Shown: piece by piece, positions 5,546-61,278 of the stretch
Layout of the letters: each line of letters starts with the position of its first letter
Position numbering within the stretch: position 1 is the stretch's first letter
Assembly (NCBI GenBank): GCA_964506225.1
Contig: CAZDKH010000010.1
Span: 23,019 to 87,018 of the forward strand
Origin: an uncultured Gammaproteobacteria bacterium
GTDB lineage: Bacteria; Patescibacteriota; Microgenomatia; UBA8517
Length of the DNA stretch: 64,000 nucleotides
Direction: 5' to 3'
Notes under the pieces: generated by a model
The model's database searches: none
Told to the model about the DNA's origin: nothing
Seen by the model: the letters and a program-made list of their open reading frames with translations, nothing else
Translations under genes and position numbers: made by a program

Positions 5546-5723
5546 AAATAATCTCCCGGCGTTTTTTTTTACTCTGGCCATTCTTTTTCTTTTTGGAAGC
5601 TTGATATCTATTTTACTAGGCCACATGGGCTTTGCTTTAAGAGTATTTAAATATATTTATTTTACTTTGGTTGTCGGGGTTTTAATGTATATCTTAAGCA
5701 TCCGAAAATATGAAAAAAAATAG
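5538..5723 (+). CDS. Small 2-helix membrane protein, unknown function
   Basis: The ORF track starts at TTG 5520. The ATG at 5538 is preferred because it overlaps the upstream stop (ATGTTTAA) and is preceded by AAAAGGG. The protein has two hydrophobic segments and overlaps the next gene's start. Confidence 0.4.
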   Translation: MFKNNLPAFFFTLAILFLFGSLISILLGHMGFALRVFKYIYFTLVVGVLMYILSIRKYEKK

Positions 5724-21564: not shown

Positions 21565-23023
21565 AATATTCCTACAAATATTCGGGAAGAAAAACCGTGA
21601 GTATTTAATTTTATCAATGATTGTTTTCACGGGCTTTTTATTGAGAGTTTATAAATTAGACTCTCCTCTTGCCGATTGGCACTCGTTTCGTCAAGCTGAT
21701 ACTTCCTCTGTTACTCGGGTATATTTAGAAGACGGTATAAATCTACTTTATCCGCGCTATCACGATCTTTCCAGCACACAAAGCGGGAAGGATAACTTGT
21801 TGGGGTTAAGGTTTGTGGAGTTCCCGCTTTACAATCTAGCACACTATCTGATTGCAGTTATTTTTCCTTTTTTTAATCTTGAGGAAGCCGGAAGATTGAC
21901 CTCAATTTTGGCGTCCTTGTGGTCGCTTTTTTTTATCTATCTGATATGCAAAAAAATATATAACAAGAAAGTGGCCATTTTAGCATCTTTGTTTTTTGCA
22001 ATACTTCCTTTTAACATTTATTTTTCCCGAACAATATTACCAGAACCACTGGCGATTTTGCTCGCCTTGATGGCTATTTTTAGCTTTATACTTTTTTTAG
22101 AGCAAGAAAAACTTTTATACCTTTTTTTAGGTAGCCTTGCTTTTGCATCTTCTTTATTGGTTAAACCATTTACCATTTTTTACGCCGCTCCCATTATTTA
22201 TCTTGCCATAAGGAAATATCTTCTCATAAGAAAATATACAATTGGGTTATTATTAAGGCAAAAAACCTTTTGGTTGTCTCTTTTTTTAACTCTGGCGCCC
22301 CTTTTTTTATGGAGAATTTGGATTTTGCAGCATCCCGAGGCGATACCGCGGATTAGTTGGATGTTTAATGAAGGCTCAATACGTTTCCGGCCAGCCTTTT
22401 TTAGGTGGATTTTTGGGGAAAGAATCGGTCTTTTGATTCTTGGGATGTGGGGTCTTGTCCCTTTTTCTTTGGCTTTAACTAAAATTAATAAAAAAACTCT
22501 CTTTGTGATTTTCTGGTTTTTGGCTGAGGTTTTATATTTAACTATCTTTGCTGCGGTTAACGTCAGACATGATTATTATCAGATTTATCTTCTTTCTCCA
22601 ATTTCGATACTTCTTTCTTTGGGTGTAGTTTATCTTTGGGAAGATAATTTTTTTAATAAATTTGCCTCTAGAATTTTAGTCGTTTTTTCTGTTTTTATGA
22701 TGCTTGGGATGAGTGCCTATCAGGTCAAAGAATTTTACAAAATAAACCACCCTGAAATTATCGAGGCTGGAAGGGCACTTGATATGCTTGTTCCCAAAGA
22801 TGCCTTGGTTATCGCTGCCTACAACGGCGACACAGCCTTTTTGTATCAGACAAAAAGAAAGGGCTGGCCGGTTGTAGATGATTCGTTTGAGAATCTTATT
22901 AAAAAAGGAGCAAGTTTTTATATCTCTGTTAATCTTAATGACCCAGATACCTTGTATCTTTCTCAAAATTTTCCTGTTCTGAAAAAAACCGAGAAGTTTA
23001 TAATAATTCAATTAACCAGATAA
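21557..23023 (+). CDS. GT-C glycosyltransferase, ArnT/PMT_2-like
   Basis: ATG 21557 ('MSKIFLQIF') was preferred over the track start at 21527. 'DWHSFRQADTSSVTRVY' and 'FVEFPLYN' are typical of GT39/GT83-like enzymes. Confidence 0.75.
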   Translation: MSKIFLQIFGKKNREYLILSMIVFTGFLLRVYKLDSPLADWHSFRQADTSSVTRVYLEDGINLLYPRYHDLSSTQSGKDNLLGLRFVEFPLYNLAHYLIAVIFPFFNLEEAGRLTSILASLWSLFFIYLICKKIYNKKVAILASLFFAILPFNIYFSRTILPEPLAILLALMAIFSFILFLEQEKLLYLFLGSLAFASSLLVKPFTIFYAAPIIYLAIRKYLLIRKYTIGLLLRQKTFWLSLFLTLAPLFLWRIWILQHPEAIPRISWMFNEGSIRFRPAFFRWIFGERIGLLILGMWGLVPFSLALTKINKKTLFVIFWFLAEVLYLTIFAAVNVRHDYYQIYLLSPISILLSLGVVYLWEDNFFNKFASRILVVFSVFMMLGMSAYQVKEFYKINHPEIIEAGRALDMLVPKDALVIAAYNGDTAFLYQTKRKGWPVVDDSFENLIKKGASFYISVNLNDPDTLYLSQNFPVLKKTEKFIIIQLTR

Positions 23024-33457: not shown

Positions 33458-34059
33458 GGAGATACTTACAAGGCAACAGAAAACACTTCTTCCTTTATTA
33501 AAGGAGTTCTCAAATGACTTTGGTTTGGTTGGTGGCACGGCCCTTGCTCTCCAGATTGGTCACAGAAGGTCTGTTGATTTTGGCCTTTTTACTCTTAGAA
33601 GTTTTGATATCGAGAGGATTAGAAATACTGTTAGACAAAAATTTGCTATTCAGGAAACGTTGGTTGAAAATCCCAATGAGCTTACGCTTGCTATTAACAA
33701 CGTCAAGCTTACATTTTACAAATATCCTTATACTATGGGTTTTCAAAAAGCTTAAACAAGGTTATTAAAATGCCTGATATTTTGACGCTTGCTGCGATGA
33801 AAGCTTTTGCTCTAGGAAGAAGGGTAAGTGGAAGGACTATGTAGATCTTTACTACGTTTTTAAAATCTATAGCCTAAAGGACATAGTGACGAAAGCAATA
33901 GGAATTTTCAAAGAAGAGTTTAATGAGAAGCTTTTGAGGGAACAACTTTCCTGTTTTACCGATATTGATTATTCAGAAAAGATTGACTATCTAAAGGGCT
34001 TTGAGGTAAGGGATGAAGAAATAAAAAGAAAATTGACCGAAATTAGCCTTTCAAGATAG
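33456..34059 (+). pseudogene. Decayed nucleotidyltransferase AbiEii/AbiGii toxin-family gene
   Basis: Three reading-frame pieces join into one family-like protein. Piece 1 is '..LTRQQKTLLPLLKEFSNDFGLVGGTALALQIGHRRSVDFGLFT...YKYPYTMGFQKA' followed by a stop. After a frame change, piece 2 is 'MPDILTLAAMKAFALGRR'. After another frame change, piece 3 is 'KWKDYVDLYYVFKIYSLKDIV...ISLSR' followed by a stop. There is no in-frame ATG at the 5' end. Confidence 0.65.
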
Positions 34060-34132: not shown

Positions 34133-35614
34133 TTATTGGAATTTTTTGCCTAGGTTAGATAATAGCGAGGCCGCAATGTCAACATCAGTGACCAGAGTTG
34201 TTCCGCTTTCGATTGCGGCTTGACGGATAAGTTTCCCATCGCTTATTTCTTTATCATCGCGTTTAGGATTTGTGGGAATATTTATAATAAGATCAAACAT
34301 ATTTTTTTGTAGAAGATCCCTTAGGTTTGGTTGTCCATTTTCGCTTATTTTATAAACTCTGGTTGAGGGTATTCCGTGCTTTTGTAAAAAGAGATTTGTG
34401 TTTTGGGTCGCGTAAAGAATATGGCTGTTACTTCTTAATTTTTTAAGGCTGGGTAAAAGTTTGGCCTTGTTTTCGTCTTTACCTATTGAAAGTAATATTG
34501 TTTTCTTGTGGTCAAGGATTGGTTGCATGCCGCGTTTGGCTACATCCCAATCTTTGGTTTGTCTATTCATTAAACAAAAAAGAGAGCATTGTCTAATATC
34601 ATCCATACCCAAGATAAACTGCATAACCCTTTCATTACCTATCCCATATCCTGCGTGAGGTAAGGTTTTTTGAGCCACTATAATATCTTCGGTATACCAC
34701 TGAAAATCTTCATATTTTCCACCACGTTGCTCGTGCATTTTATACATCTTAGATGTCAAAAACCTCACAATTAGTTTTACCCCATCGTGCTCGCGGACAG
34801 CAGAGCCGACTCCCTCTCCACTGAAAGGAAATATACAATCAGCCGAAAGAACCACCCTGGGGTCTTTCGTTGAGACTTTCATATTGAAGAATTTGATTTC
34901 TTTTGGATATTTCATAATAAAAACTGGAGAGAATTCTGCAGTGTTTTTTCCGTAACCTCTTGTTTTTTTGTTGAGAAGCTCAACTATCTTGGCTTCATGC
35001 TCGGATATTAAATCATCTCCAAATTGTAGTTCAGGCCAACCATTCTTTTGTAAAAGCAAGACAGCTTCTTCGTAGGAAATCCGCAAATATGGCCTTGCCA
35101 TAATCTCCTTAAGAAGAGCAGGATCTCTTTTGTAATCTGATTTGAGAATTTTACTATTGTTTTCTAGAACTGAATTTATCATCGCTTTTGTGGCTAGTTC
35201 AATATGGGCAAGAAGTGTTTCGAACATCTTTTCTTCGTCGTATGTATCTTTAGTCATCTTTGCCATTGTACAGTCAAACTCTTCCTCTGTTAATCTAAAT
35301 TGTCGAAGATGTCTTTTGTCCTCTGTCTCCTCATCGCGACCACTAAAAATTATCGTGTAGACACCGTGAGCGTATTGCAAAACTTGTTCGAGGGCAAGCT
35401 GACCTGTTTGAGTGAAGAAAAGAGGTAAATTAAGTCGGTTGCCTATTTTGAAAAGAGTGTCCACATTTTCGCAAGCTCCAGTTATACCAACAATTGCTGG
35501 TACTTCTGCGTATTGTAAACCAAGTGAACGATAATGGGCAATAGAGCCATAAAACATCGCAGAGCTGAAATTCACCAAGTTCTGAAAATGTTTATTATTA
35601 TCTTTGAGTGACAT
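34133..35614 (-). CDS. Class II aaRS-like catalytic core (AsnRS/AspRS/AsnA-type, no anticodon-binding domain) fused to a C-terminal MGS-like domain
   Basis: The motif-1-like sequence is 'YAEVPAIVGITGACENVDTLF'. The motif-2-like sequence is 'FSGRDEETEDKRHLRQFRLTEEEF', which aligns residue for residue with AsnRS '[21 protein letters not shown]'. The motif-3-like sequence is 'GYGIGNERVMQFILGMDDIRQCSLF'. The last ~120 aa ('KKTILLSIGKDENK..YATQNTNLFLQKHGIP..FDLIINIP..IRQAAIESGTTLVTDVDIA') resemble the MGS-like fold of the CPSase allosteric domain. Confidence 0.7.
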   Translation of the reverse strand: MSLKDNNKHFQNLVNFSSAMFYGSIAHYRSLGLQYAEVPAIVGITGACENVDTLFKIGNRLNLPLFFTQTGQLALEQVLQYAHGVYTIIFSGRDEETEDKRHLRQFRLTEEEFDCTMAKMTKDTYDEEKMFETLLAHIELATKAMINSVLENNSKILKSDYKRDPALLKEIMARPYLRISYEEAVLLLQKNGWPELQFGDDLISEHEAKIVELLNKKTRGYGKNTAEFSPVFIMKYPKEIKFFNMKVSTKDPRVVLSADCIFPFSGEGVGSAVREHDGVKLIVRFLTSKMYKMHEQRGGKYEDFQWYTEDIIVAQKTLPHAGYGIGNERVMQFILGMDDIRQCSLFCLMNRQTKDWDVAKRGMQPILDHKKTILLSIGKDENKAKLLPSLKKLRSNSHILYATQNTNLFLQKHGIPSTRVYKISENGQPNLRDLLQKNMFDLIINIPTNPKRDDKEISDGKLIRQAAIESGTTLVTDVDIAASLLSNLGKKFQ

Positions 35615-35616
35615 AT

Positions 35617-35640
35617 AAAAAAAAGACCCTTGCGGGTCTT
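35617..35640 (-). terminator. Rho-independent terminator-like hairpin 2 nt upstream of the start codon of the 34133..35614 gene
   Basis: The minus strand reads AAGACCC-GCAA-GGGTCTT followed by a T-tract of 8 T's in total. That is a 7-bp stem with a GNRA tetraloop. The sequence then continues AT-ATG (start at 35614). Confidence 0.75.
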
Positions 35641-35713
35641 CTTTGATAAATAATTTTTGATTTATAGTTTTTCCAGAGTTCCCCTAATGCCATAAAATAA
35701 TCTCTAAAATTTT

Positions 35714-35742
35714 AATCTAGAGATTTTCTAAAAAAGTGTCAA
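35714..35742 (-). promoter_or_regulatory. Candidate promoter TTGACA-17-TAGATT (minus strand) for the leader/aaRS-like gene
   Basis: On the minus strand, TTGACA is at 35742-35737 and TAGATT at 35719-35714, with a 17-nt spacer. An 8-bp inverted repeat, AATCTCTA/TAGAGATT, overlaps the -10 box and the predicted TSS. Confidence 0.45.
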
Positions 35743-59688: not shown

Positions 59689-61278
59689 CTAATGGGTGTT
59701 GCGCTGAAAAACGTCAAAGGTGGTATTCCACCTGATGGGTGAAGGATTCAAACAGTGTAGTTCGCTAATTGTTTTGGCGTTCCTGAATACCATTGCCAAA
59801 ATTGCATCCTCGATAAGATAGTGAATATTATAAGTAAGAGTTGGGTAAAGATGTTTAACATAACTCATTTCCGCCTTTCTGGTTTCTCCTTCCACGAAAG
59901 AGGGAATATTAAAGGGTAGAATTTTGGATTCAAGGTATTTTACTCTGGCCGAAGCTTCTCCTCCATAGGGCTTAAAAAGTTTTCCGTTTCCATCTGCGCA
60001 GTAAAGAGCTCCGCCGGGGGATTCGATAGTGCCTCCTGCCACAACTCTTGAGACTCCAATTCCGGAAGCCCCCAAAAGAAGAGTGATAGAGACATGATCC
60101 GAGGCTCCGCCTTCAACTATCACGGGTATTTTGATTTTACCTCGAAGCTGCCATAAAAGTTCAGGCCAATTAATTACCAAACCGCTTCTTAATCCTGTTG
60201 TACACCTTCCTCCTCCTCCGATGCCGATAAACAGTCCGTCTGCGCCTTCAGCTTCTGCCCTCTGGGCTTGTCCGACATCCACTATTTGACCGCTAAAGAT
60301 TTCTATTTTATTCTTATATTCTTTTCTTAATACTTTTGTGGTTTCGACGGGTCCATTGCCCGGTTCAGGGGAATAGATTCGAAATGTGCGCACTCCAGCA
60401 TTAAAAAGTGCTTCGGCCCTGCTCAGAGCTTTTTCAGGATTTGCCTCAATTACTCCTGAGACATTCCTTCTCCATAATTTTGAGATATAGTCTCGGACAG
60501 GATGGTCTTTTAAGATTTGTTGCTCCATTAAATTGAGCCATTGAAAAACTTCTTTAGCAAGGTCACTTTGACGCTTGATATCTTTTGTCAATCCATTTCG
60601 GGGAATCGCAGCCAGACAGTGAGACGCTGCCATTGTTGCCACAGCTGCGGCAGAATTCCAGATATCCGGACTTGCACTACCCACGAATATGTGACGTGCT
60701 TGTTTTCCCAATTTGACAAATGGTCCTTGGGCGTATCTTTCGCTTCTTTGGATTCTGGGTTTTTCTGAACCAACAATGGTTGCTCCAAGGTCGCCTATAG
60801 ATAAAGATAAACCCATTTTACTGGCAGATTCGAAGGCTTTAGAAGAAATCTTTGGTGGTGCTTTAAATTTTTTTTTGTCTGTAAGGCGTAAAAAATATAT
60901 CCTATAAGGATGATTAAAAAGTTCTAAGAAAAAACGCCTGAGACGAAGGGTTTTAATAATCATCTCTTGTGGTAAAAGATATAAAAATTTGTATGAAAGA
61001 TAGTCATAGGGAGTAAAAACCAACCCCTGGCTTGGATAAACAAGTTTTCCTTCTTTGGAAAATTCAAGCCATGGTGCTAGATAGTTTTTAATATCCTTTT
61101 CTTCTTGGAAAAGAAGTTTTTTAATCCTTTCCTTGCCGGCGACAGGATCCCGTAGCTTTTCAAAATCAGTTTTCCAGTTAAGAAGTTGTTGTTTCACCAA
61201 ATTACTATACAATAATTTTAATGTCAAAGAAAATACTTTATTTTGCAACAAGCAATGAGGGAAAATTAAAAGAGGCAA
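59689..61278 (-). CDS. IMPDH/GMP-reductase family TIM-barrel protein with a long N-terminal extension (start uncertain)
   Basis: 'ADGLFIGIGGGGRCTTGLRSG' compares with IMPDH 'GIGPGSICTT' and retains the Cys. 'VIVEGGASDHVSITLLLGASGIGVSRVVAGGTIESPG' is also IMPDH-like. The ATG at 61278 overlaps rdgB head-to-head by 58 nt. The alternative starts TTG 61200 and GTG 61197 avoid the overlap. Confidence 0.65.
   Translation of the reverse strand: MPLLIFPHCLLQNKVFSLTLKLLYSNLVKQQLLNWKTDFEKLRDPVAGKERIKKLLFQEEKDIKNYLAPWLEFSKEGKLVYPSQGLVFTPYDYLSYKFLYLLPQEMIIKTLRLRRFFLELFNHPYRIYFLRLTDKKKFKAPPKISSKAFESASKMGLSLSIGDLGATIVGSEKPRIQRSERYAQGPFVKLGKQARHIFVGSASPDIWNSAAAVATMAASHCLAAIPRNGLTKDIKRQSDLAKEVFQWLNLMEQQILKDHPVRDYISKLWRRNVSGVIEANPEKALSRAEALFNAGVRTFRIYSPEPGNGPVETTKVLRKEYKNKIEIFSGQIVDVGQAQRAEAEGADGLFIGIGGGGRCTTGLRSGLVINWPELLWQLRGKIKIPVIVEGGASDHVSITLLLGASGIGVSRVVAGGTIESPGGALYCADGNGKLFKPYGGEASARVKYLESKILPFNIPSFVEGETRKAEMSYVKHLYPTLTYNIHYLIEDAILAMVFRNAKTISELHCLNPSPIRWNTTFDVFQRNTH

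Follow-up and report, generated by a model that had tools for sequence, protein, structure and literature searches.

A synthetase-like catalytic core fused to a CarB-type domain in Microgenomates is a candidate enzyme of early pyrimidine synthesis

De novo pyrimidine synthesis is regarded as among the most uniform pathways in biology, and in the usual description bacteria of the Candidate Phyla Radiation (CPR) have no nucleotide biosynthesis or only part of it. Aminoacyl-tRNA synthetases (aaRSs) have tRNA-independent paralogues, a kind of protein that is already known. For the protein described here the best functional precedent is provided by AsnA and the archaeal AS-AR, which evolved from AspRS/AsnRS and adenylate an aspartate-type substrate without tRNA, activating its β-carboxyl group for attack by nitrogen. 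We analyzed a stretch of 64,000 nt, hereafter the window (positions 23,019 to 87,018 of contig CAZDKH010000010.1, assembly GCA_964506225.1), and within it the gene for a 493-residue protein, CORE-MGS, in which a catalytic core like that of asparaginyl-tRNA synthetase (AsnRS) precedes an MGS-like domain. The Microgenomates form of this protein is best explained, with a probability of about one half, as an enzyme of a non-canonical early pyrimidine pathway that is regulated by uridine monophosphate (UMP). CORE-MGS probably belongs to an undescribed early pyrimidine route rather than to protein synthesis, and the evidence points to pyrimidine metabolism, which had not been among the considerations of an earlier note on this DNA. 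The gene and its two domains are placed as follows:
34133–35614, minus strand: the whole gene, AsnRS-like core plus MGS-like domain, 493 aa, with an ATG start and the stop codon at 34133–34135.
34535–35614, minus strand: class IIb aaRS catalytic core, aa 1–360, without the N-terminal OB-fold anticodon domain (Pfam, asnS models, Foldseek).
34136–34507, minus strand: CarB-type MGS-like domain, aa 370–493 (Pfam MGS, alignment with E. coli CarB).

The aaRS core of the product belongs to class IIb and is closest to that of AsnRS; it lacks the anticodon domain and is fused to a CarB-type MGS domain. The earlier note had read this architecture from the letters of the DNA, and it is confirmed by the agreement of Pfam, NCBIfam, PDB sequence search and Foldseek. 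Both Pfam matches lie above their gathering scores, with tRNA-synt_2 at aa 38–347 (E = 4e-25, 89 bits vs a cut-off of 25) and MGS (PF02142) at aa 386–476 (E = 5.9e-14, 52.4 bits vs a gathering score of 24.1). The N-terminal 350 aa align to positions 126–448 of the 451-position NCBIfam asnS model, and because these alignments begin at position 126 of 451 the OB-fold anticodon-binding domain is missing. A Pfam scan of the 493-aa protein matched no tRNA_anti-codon domain, and the protein starts ~30 aa before motif 1. The last ~125 aa align to positions 923–1044 of the NCBIfam CarB model. In the PDB, the best sequence match for the core is Pyrococcus horikoshii AsnRS (1x54, E = 1.9e-25), and the C-terminal part matches the MGS domain of human CPS1 (2yvq, E = 4e-8). 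An AlphaFold model has a mean predicted local distance difference test (pLDDT) score of 85.3, with low scores for residues 42–69. With this model Foldseek ranks AsnRS first in the PDB (1x54, 2e-21) and AspRS next, and aa 371–490 form the alternating strands and helices of an α/β domain. The motif strings quoted in the note are all present, at aa 35–55, 92–113 and 322–346, the first of them comprising the end of motif 1 and the subsequent substrate loop. Public records at NCBI, JGI and ENA contain a 100% identical protein, on contigs of up to 168 kb.

The CORE-MGS family is large, conserved and uncharacterized in Microgenomates. At least 120 clusters at the 90% identity level have the full architecture, are 57–74% identical and all come from Microgenomates, where the fusion occurs in Gottesman-, Roizman-, Ames-, Woese-, Levy- and Beckwithbacteria. 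These full fusions form the first of three tiers. The second consists of core-only proteins from other CPR lineages (54–65% identical), and the third of ~310–390-aa cores (35–46% identical) from DPANN archaea, Oligoflexales and the cultured Psychrobacillus. An exhaustive search of 1.84 billion representatives returned 82 clusters at E ≤ 1e-30 and 516 at E ≤ 1e-10, with canonical AsnRS appearing only near E = 1e-21 to 1e-25. The public names are generic or automatic: 'hypothetical', 'asparaginyl-tRNA synthetase' (JGI pipelines) and 'amino acid--tRNA ligase-related protein'. Neither a curated family nor a paper describing the CORE-MGS fusion was found in curated profile libraries and the full-text literature outside subscription-only papers, in line with the note's impression that the fusion is not a described architecture.

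The core keeps the catalytic elements of AsnRS:
35489–35527, minus strand: motif 1 region, aa 30–42, SLGLQYAEVPAIV, with P39 invariant (alignment).
35450–35482, minus strand: substrate or 'flipping' loop TGACENVDTLF, aa 45–55, with E49 common to AsnRS.
35387–35410, minus strand: QTGQLALE, aa 69–76, an AsnRS-type QSxQLxxE substrate motif without the AspRS-type Lys (alignment).
35276–35344, minus strand: motif 2, aa 91–113, SGRDEETEDKRHLRQFRLTEEEF, with R93, E95, R101, H102, E110 and E112 kept.
34790–34846, minus strand: SADCIFPFSGEGVGSAVRE, aa 257–275, assigned by homology to AsnRS.
34577–34660, minus strand: motif 3, aa 319–346, PHAGYGIGNERVMQF...SLF, with R329 invariant (alignment).

By homology to AsnRS, D259 and E267 would be Mg/ATP ligands, and R274–E275 would belong to the substrate pocket; the GGS of AsnRS is GSA here. 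R93, E95, R101, H102, D259, E267, R274, E275 and R329 are invariant across 49 homologues and common to AsnRS. The adenylation residues as a set (R93, E95, R101–H102, E110, E112, D259, E267, R274–E275, R329 and Q69..Q72..E76) are kept in all tiers, and Q69, Q72 and E76 are invariant in AsnRS as well. The family also has substitutions of its own (N50, D99, N244, A272 and D339), which are found in all three tiers and in none of the AsnRS sequences compared:
E-G in AsnRS, E49–N50 in the family, with N50 in place of the AsnRS Gly.
T in the motif-2 loop of AsnRS, D99 in the family.
KAFYM in AsnRS, KFFN244M in the family.
GGS in AsnRS, G(S/A)A272 in the family.
N/H in AsnRS, D339 in the family.

The Tyr of KAFYM, which is constant across the AsnRS sequences compared, is Asn244 in the window protein. 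The motif-2 loop is acidic, with E98 and D99 invariant and D99 specific to the family. Judged from these alignments, the family is a separate paralogue lineage with a catalytic center predicted to be intact, not a decayed synthetase, and the kept motifs suggest that the protein is probably an active adenylating enzyme. The earlier proposal of a tRNA-independent adenylating enzyme under small-molecule control therefore stands up well, with the catalytic motifs kept, no anticodon domain and an MGS domain present.

The C-terminal domain is probably a nucleotide sensor of the CarB type that would respond to UMP or inosine monophosphate (IMP). Its residues S376, K383, T403, T406, K422, N445 and T476 align with S948, K954, T974, T977, K993, N1015 and T1042 of E. 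coli CarB. Three of these, K954, T974 and N1015, we take from the CarB–IMP structure to be nucleotide-site residues. In E. coli CarB, T977 and K993 are crucial for the inhibition by UMP and its binding, the substitution S948F abolishes the response to UMP and IMP, and T1042 contacts ornithine (PMC6245113). The same ligand-site residues occur at equal spacing in the MGS domains found at the C terminus of some ArgG proteins (ArgG-MGS). The CORE and ArgG versions of the domain share 48% identity with one another and ~32% with the MGS domain of a Microgenomates CarB, and the same type is found on ArgG, on CORE, on an amidohydrolase (P0342, L108) and ahead of PyrD (P0376, L099). The MGS domain of the window protein is basic, with a pI of 9.7.

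The link to pyrimidine synthesis comes from the neighborhoods of orthologues, for which flanks of up to 10 kb were available and 37 informative full-length loci were counted. At 21 of the 37, pyrD lies directly downstream or is fused to the gene, and pyr genes (pyrD/K/E/F) lie within 6 kb at 25. Stop and start codons of CORE-MGS and pyrD overlap by 4 nt in L002, L006, L009 and L013, and NCBIfam confirms the neighbors as class-1 dihydroorotate dehydrogenase, PyrK, orotate phosphoribosyltransferase and orotidine monophosphate decarboxylase. The proteins are also joined in single polypeptides, either as CORE-MGS-DHO_dh (P0243, 807 aa; L086, 833 aa) or as CORE-MGS-DHO_dh-PRTase, with a phosphoribosyltransferase (PRTase) domain in addition (L030, 1129 aa; P0241, 1134 aa). 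In sister Gottesmanbacteria (L065, L116, L117) the gene order is ATP-synthase operon, carA, carB, pyrB, pyrC, pyrD, pyrF, pyrE, pyrG, while in L002, L004, L006, L007 and L009 it is ATP-synthase operon, CORE-MGS, pyrD, (pyrK), pyrF, pyrE, pyrG. In the window's own clade, whose proteins are 68–74% identical to the window protein, CORE-MGS thus holds the exact slot of carA-carB-pyrB-pyrC in sister genomes, and the operon contains pyrD/K/F/E, upp and pyrG only. Within the flanks, carA, carB and pyrB were never seen beside the full CORE-MGS fusion. Some more distant members have similar neighbors, with the arrangement pyrE< CORE> pyrF> in Oligoflexales (L072, L082) and with pyrG and pyrK near another distant member (L071). 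The gene had been called an orphan, which is true of the window and untrue of its relatives, in which it is an operon member, and in some cases a fusion partner, of pyrD/pyrE/pyrF.

Other features recur in these operons. A SLOG/LOG-like (TIGR00725-related) gene repeatedly lies between pyrD and pyrF (L013, L034:12690-13304, L036, L038, L093, L096, L110), and CBS-domain proteins are often encoded immediately ahead of the entry gene. The pyrD neighbor also comes in a long form, ~355–375 aa with a Pfam DHO_dh match (L038:7069-8193, L087:8975-10069, L088:8993-10084 and others), which alternates across operons with the ordinary ~305-aa form; one long-form protein scored ~80 bits on the dihydroorotate dehydrogenase equivalogs, far under their cut-offs.

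Upstream of the window gene lies a structured leader, as the earlier note had observed:
35714–35742, minus strand: promoter-like site TTGACA-17-TAGATT; the arrangement TTGACA...TAGACT is also found in orthologous leaders.
35694–35729, minus strand: leader hairpin 1, then a U-rich run (sequence and folding).
35598–35693, minus strand: predicted leader open reading frame (ORF) of 31 codons, MALGELWKNYKSKIIYQRRPARVFFLYVTQR (read from the sequence).
35619–35644, minus strand: leader hairpin 2, terminator-like, with an 11-bp stem and a GCAA loop, a candidate attenuator.

The predicted leader ORF spans hairpin 2 and stops 14 nt inside the main ORF in a different frame, and the U-tract of hairpin 2 ends ~4 nt ahead of the CORE-MGS ATG. 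RNAfold gives the leader a z-score of −2.84. The window has no co-directional upstream gene that the terminator-like hairpin could serve. Orthologous leaders follow a like plan (L002, L004, L005, L006, L007, L010, L013, L020, L040, L041, L045), in which the stems differ in sequence yet remain complementary. Comparable CCCAGG...CTGGG hairpins and a U7 run occur in the leaders of L002, L004, L006, L007 and L010, and short ORFs in orthologous leaders read the U-run as Phe-Phe. Among family genes, 14.9% have a terminator-like hairpin ending no more than 12 nt from the start, vs 0.4% of 818 other genes at the same loci; with a limit of 35 nt the shares are 37.8% vs 1.7%, an enrichment of 20- to 35-fold. 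The hairpin-U6-ATG design also stands ahead of carA in L116 (~5690-5720) and L117 (~5640-5667), and ArgG-MGS leaders have a looser form of it, a promoter followed by a terminator hairpin. A PyrR-binding site or other known RNA element was considered and dropped, as Rfam returned nothing at gathering or permissive thresholds. The leaders of E. coli pyrBI and pyrE are pyrimidine-responsive attenuators, and by its layout the CORE-MGS leader looks like a candidate for the same type of control.

A second unusual set of genes shares these operons. In a recurrent and near-obligatory pair, a PRK06886-family amidohydrolase follows directly on an ArgG equivalog that carries a CarB-type MGS domain at its C terminus. 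Against an argG equivalog cut-off of 334 bits the ArgG part reaches 507, and it matches Thermus thermophilus argininosuccinate synthetase at 1e-105. The nearest solved relative of the amidohydrolase is AtzC (8e-20), an exocyclic N-alkyl amidohydrolase, and then cytosine deaminase (5e-15). The pair is placed directly upstream of pyrD-pyrE-pyrF or divergent from carA, at L026:7302-9954, L036:7281-9954, L086:6400-8978, L087:6377-8978, L088:6375-8987 and others, and on the minus strand at L116:2766-5572 and L117:2879-5500. No argH gene was seen at the pair loci, and in L087 a gene of the dimethylargininase/arginine-dihydrolase type lies just upstream of the pair. The pair may form a citrulline-dependent route to dihydroorotate or carbamoyl-aspartate, and in the full-text literature, subscription-only papers excluded, we found no account of an ArgG-MGS/amidohydrolase pair or of a non-canonical pyrimidine entry in CPR bacteria. 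A PRK06886 amidohydrolase also occurs alone, without an adjoining ArgG-MGS, in the cultured Pasteurellaceae species Mannheimia granulomatis (L085:10001-10987, CP015030.1); its 67% identity to that of CPR bacteria suggests horizontal transfer, and its genomic context was uninformative as a clue to function.

At the level of loci, the canonical genes, the pair and CORE mix freely upstream of pyrD:
Canonical genes and the pair: L100, L116, L117.
Canonical PyrC and CORE: L015, L065.
The pair and CORE: 12 loci, for example L026, L036, L086.
The pair alone: 9 loci, for example L087, L088.
CORE alone: at least 12 loci.

The presence of both in L100, L116 and L117 rules out the pair as a strict replacement for CarAB-PyrB-PyrC.

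Taking the comparative evidence together, we put at about even odds the reading that CORE-MGS adenylates its substrate independently of tRNA, responds to UMP and provides a non-canonical entry to dihydroorotate. The AsnRS-derived enzyme would act at or just before PyrD in de novo pyrimidine synthesis, and three interchangeable modules would feed PyrD in Microgenomates: carA-carB-pyrB-pyrC, ArgG-MGS with the AtzC-like amidohydrolase, and CORE-MGS. In the proposed reaction, ATP would adenylate the carboxyl or carbamate group of an Asp- or Asn-derived substrate, an intramolecular nitrogen would attack the adenylate, and the dihydroorotate ring would close as AMP leaves. Pyrimidine nucleotides would feed back at two levels, on the protein through the MGS domain and on transcription through the terminator-type leader.

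Two specific chemistries can be drawn for this step, and we consider neither of them likely on its own. In the first, the β-carboxyl group of an N-substituted aspartate would be activated as by AsnA. With N-carbamoyl-L-aspartate, dihydroorotate would form directly; with argininosuccinate, a six-membered cyclic anhydride would form, and the AtzC-like hydrolase could convert it to dihydroorotate and ornithine. This chemistry would explain the trio and the presence of an exocyclic-amine hydrolase; it leaves unexplained the many loci that have only the gene or only the pair. In the second, L-asparagine, CO2 and ATP would give dihydroorotate through an N-carboxy-Asn adenylate, with one protein doing the work of four genes. 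The protein would then be self-sufficient, which fits the free combination of the modules and the retained Asn-type pocket; on this fold such a reaction has no precedent known to us, the nearest chemistry being that of TsaC/Sua5. We consider doubtful the complete scheme, in which a carbamoyl-phosphate-independent entry, for example from Asn and CO2, would have replaced CarA, CarB, PyrB and PyrC and inherited the UMP domain and the attenuator, next to a parallel citrulline route consisting of argininosuccinate formation by ArgG-MGS, ring closure and release of ornithine by the AtzC-like enzyme.

Several observations weigh against a role for CORE-MGS in dihydroorotate formation. At 12 of the 37 full-length loci no pyr, ArgG or amidohydrolase gene is near, and a tblastn search of the 64-kb window found no pyrD/E/F/G/K, carA/B, pyrB/C, ArgG-MGS or amidohydrolase gene. 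The core-only relatives of other CPR lineages (54–65% identity) are without visible pyr genes, which fits a more general function, such as asparagine synthesis. Nine operons with ArgG-MGS, amidohydrolase, pyrD, pyrE and pyrF have no CORE gene, so CORE is not obligatory in the pair operon, provided that those genomes do not encode it at another site, and at the level of loci there is no support for CORE as an obligatory third member of the pair module. An apparently functional PyrC is encoded directly upstream of CORE in L015 and L065, where a simple PyrC replacement would therefore be redundant; a plain analogue of this dihydroorotase is thus disfavored. The apparent replacement of carAB, pyrB and pyrC is read from flanks of up to 10 kb. 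The substrate pocket retains nearly all AsnRS residues, which makes activation of Asn or Asp the most conservative prediction, and we know of no class II aaRS fold that adenylates a carbamate. Finally, we infer the reaction itself from context alone.

A rival reading is an asparagine synthetase of the AsnA kind (Asp + NH3 + ATP → Asn + AMP + PPi) that would be regulated through a domain able to bind nucleotides. In common with AsnA and archaeal AS-AR, the protein has a catalytic core only, its AsnRS-type pocket residues are kept, and NCBIfam returns weak matches to 'asparagine synthetase A' models. Core-only kin are widespread in host-dependent CPR and DPANN organisms without visible pyr genes, and such organisms would need asparagine. 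The earlier note had offered conversion of Asp to Asn as an example of the reaction, and for this we found no specific support: the best AsnA model gives 46 bits vs a cut-off of 368, the AS-AR structure 3p8t matches at E = 0.1, and tblastn with E. coli AsnA gave no match. The fusion to PyrD-PyrE, the adjacency to pyrD at 21 of 37 loci and the positional replacement of carAB-pyrBC would be left unexplained, and a sensor with UMP-site residues and a carA-like leader are likewise hard to explain for an asparagine synthetase, which we consider unlikely.

Less likely again is an amide or ester ligase that would form Asn-AMP, or adenylate an Asn-like acid such as dihydroorotate, and transfer the acyl group to an acceptor other than tRNA, which might be a protein, a carrier protein or some small molecule. 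Its linkage to pyr genes would then reflect the use of a pathway intermediate and not its synthesis. The near-complete match of the pocket and the α-amino-binding residues to AsnRS makes activation of the α-carboxyl group the most conservative half-reaction, EpmA and amino acid:carrier-protein ligases are precedents among aaRS paralogues, and the Psychrobacillus member and a second one (L114, L115) are encoded in a cluster of biosynthetic type with DegT, epimerase, ATP-grasp, NUDIX and DHOase-like genes. However, the Microgenomates gene has no conserved neighbor that could encode an acceptor or carrier, the operon of the window clade is confined to its pyr genes and upp, and UMP synthesis has no use for dihydroorotate or orotate activated at the carboxylate.

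A non-catalytic regulatory subunit appears improbable. Such a subunit would control PyrD/PyrE or the ArgG-MGS module by binding an amino acid and a nucleotide, in the way that HisZ controls HisG. HisZ, the regulator of a phosphoribosyltransferase, likewise has a class II aaRS core and no anticodon domain, and CORE-MGS is fused or adjacent to PyrD-PRTase and carries a domain of allosteric type. Yet every residue for ATP, Mg and adenylate formation is invariant, both among 49 homologues and between the three divergent tiers, which is unexpected in a purely regulatory paralogue.

The suggestion that CORE-MGS is the organism's real AsnRS, with the basic (pI 9.7) MGS-like α/β domain as a surrogate tRNA-binding domain, draws on AsnRS being closest in sequence and fold and on the name given by the JGI pipelines, and we reject it almost entirely because the OB domain is missing, the scores are far under the AsnRS equivalog cut-offs (138 bits vs 414 for NF003037; 131 vs 342.6 for TIGR00457), the active site has derived changes, of which the acidic motif-2 loop with invariant E98 and D99 and the Tyr-to-Asn244 exchange would argue against aminoacylation of tRNA-Asn, the MGS domain keeps a nucleotide-monophosphate site, the operon and fusion context is pyrimidine synthesis and not translation, and core-only forms exist without any extra domain.

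Variants of the core occur outside the full fusion. One has an N-terminal extension of ~460–500 aa and no MGS domain (L065:8585-11110, 841 aa; P0246, 822 aa; P0254, 857 aa); the extension has zero Pfam or NCBIfam matches, and the 841-aa protein of L065 is encoded directly downstream of a canonical carA-carB-pyrB-pyrC. The core-only members with 45–46% identity in Psychrobacillus sp. PGGUH221 (L114:1913-13496, WP_375220472.1) and in L115 (4136-13628) lie in a conserved cluster that encodes an epimerase, a DegT aminotransferase, a NUDIX protein, an ATP-grasp-like protein, two uncharacterized ~485–500-aa proteins, a DHOase-family amidohydrolase next to the core and a PEP-utilizers-like protein, with an AAA_26 protein in L114 only. 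This cluster borders integrase or recombinase genes and DNA-methyltransferase or restriction-modification genes, and it may open the family to study in a culturable host. The neighborhoods of distant core-only members in DPANN and other CPR lineages (Lhr helicase, GreA and similar) were uninformative as to function. Many 'binchicken' metagenome-assembled genome records with a CPR-type gene and neighbors (L008, L011, L015, L022, L024–L027 and others) are titled 'uncultured Gammaproteobacteria', 'Pseudomonadales' or 'Saccharibacteria', and the taxonomic labels on these records look unreliable.

Within the window, CORE-MGS is the sole gene on its strand for ~7 kb to both sides, as the note had said of a lone minus-strand gene in the central region. 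The note had also placed it between a decayed mobile cassette and the dcw promoter. The dcw cluster (mraZ onwards) is indeed divergent from CORE-MGS, and the cassette fits loosely: a 76-aa ORF at 33525–33755 (plus strand) has a weak match to the N terminus of the AbiEii toxin (E = 0.006, profile positions 18–60 of 238) and looks like a truncated toxin-antitoxin remnant. The only other large minus-strand gene (59689–61278) encodes a 529-aa divergent barrel of the inosine monophosphate dehydrogenase (IMPDH)/GMP-reductase family (PDB IMPDH, 5.6e-12) with a GGGGRCTT loop and a ~260-aa N-terminal region without any match; it proved unrelated to a cluster of ~515-aa proteins near pyr genes (L036, L039). 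Positions 1–30280 (plus strand) hold a large cluster for surface-polysaccharide and glycosylation functions, including a 1170-aa GT-C/AftD-like protein, a Wzx-like flippase, Wzy_C, two PMT_2 proteins, at least six GT4 glycosyltransferases, a mannose-1-P guanylyltransferase-like protein and a DUF4012 protein.

If the proposed role in dihydroorotate formation is correct, an aaRS paralogue would have taken over the first committed steps of pyrimidine synthesis with the UMP sensor and leader control kept, which would add a new function to the aaRS superfamily and a new solution to dihydroorotate formation, and the metabolic independence of Microgenomates would need reassessing. The ArgG-MGS/AtzC-like pair would be a second unrecognized link between arginine or citrulline and pyrimidines. 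Recognition of the family would also correct a systematic mis-annotation, since the name 'asparaginyl-tRNA synthetase' can make genomes seem to encode AsnRS when they may not. Even with another chemistry, the family is large, strongly conserved, uncharacterized and experimentally tractable.

Compared with known systems, CORE-MGS is nearest to AsnRS in sequence (1x54, 1.9e-25; asnS models, 1e-40) and fold (Foldseek, 2e-21), and its core keeps motifs 1–3, QSxQLxxE, RHL, GE..G..RE and the motif-3 Arg. It differs from AsnRS in the absence of the OB-fold, in scores below the equivalog cut-offs, in N50/D99/N244/A272/D339 and the acidic motif-2 loop, in the MGS domain and in its pyrimidine-operon context. 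With AsnA and AS-AR it shares a stand-alone aaRS-like core without a tRNA-binding domain and the weak NCBIfam matches; unlike them it falls outside their families by sequence, is nearer to AsnRS, has a fused regulatory domain and is linked or fused to PyrD/PyrE. As in the allosteric domain of CarB, the Pfam MGS match is above its cut-off, the alignment covers CarB 923–1044 and seven ligand-site residues are conserved, but the domain is attached to an aaRS-like core and not to ATP-grasp synthetase domains. Like the CarAB-PyrB-PyrC block, CORE-MGS occupies the slot between the ATP-synthase operon and pyrD-pyrF-pyrE-pyrG, shares the leader design of the block's first gene and would yield the same product, dihydroorotate. 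In contrast to PyrC, whose cyclization is metal-dependent and reversible, it has an unrelated fold and a proposed chemistry of adenylation, and it coexists with PyrC in L015 and L065. The leader resembles those of E. coli pyrBI and pyrE in its promoter, hairpin and U-run, short leader ORF read through and terminator hairpin before the structural gene, and differs from them in having no sequence similarity or Rfam match and in a terminator U-tract that abuts the start codon. With HisZ, CORE-MGS has in common a class II aaRS core, the lack of an anticodon domain and an association with a phosphoribosyltransferase in a nucleotide-related biosynthetic pathway; unlike HisZ, its core has fully conserved catalytic residues and descends from AsnRS (class IIb).

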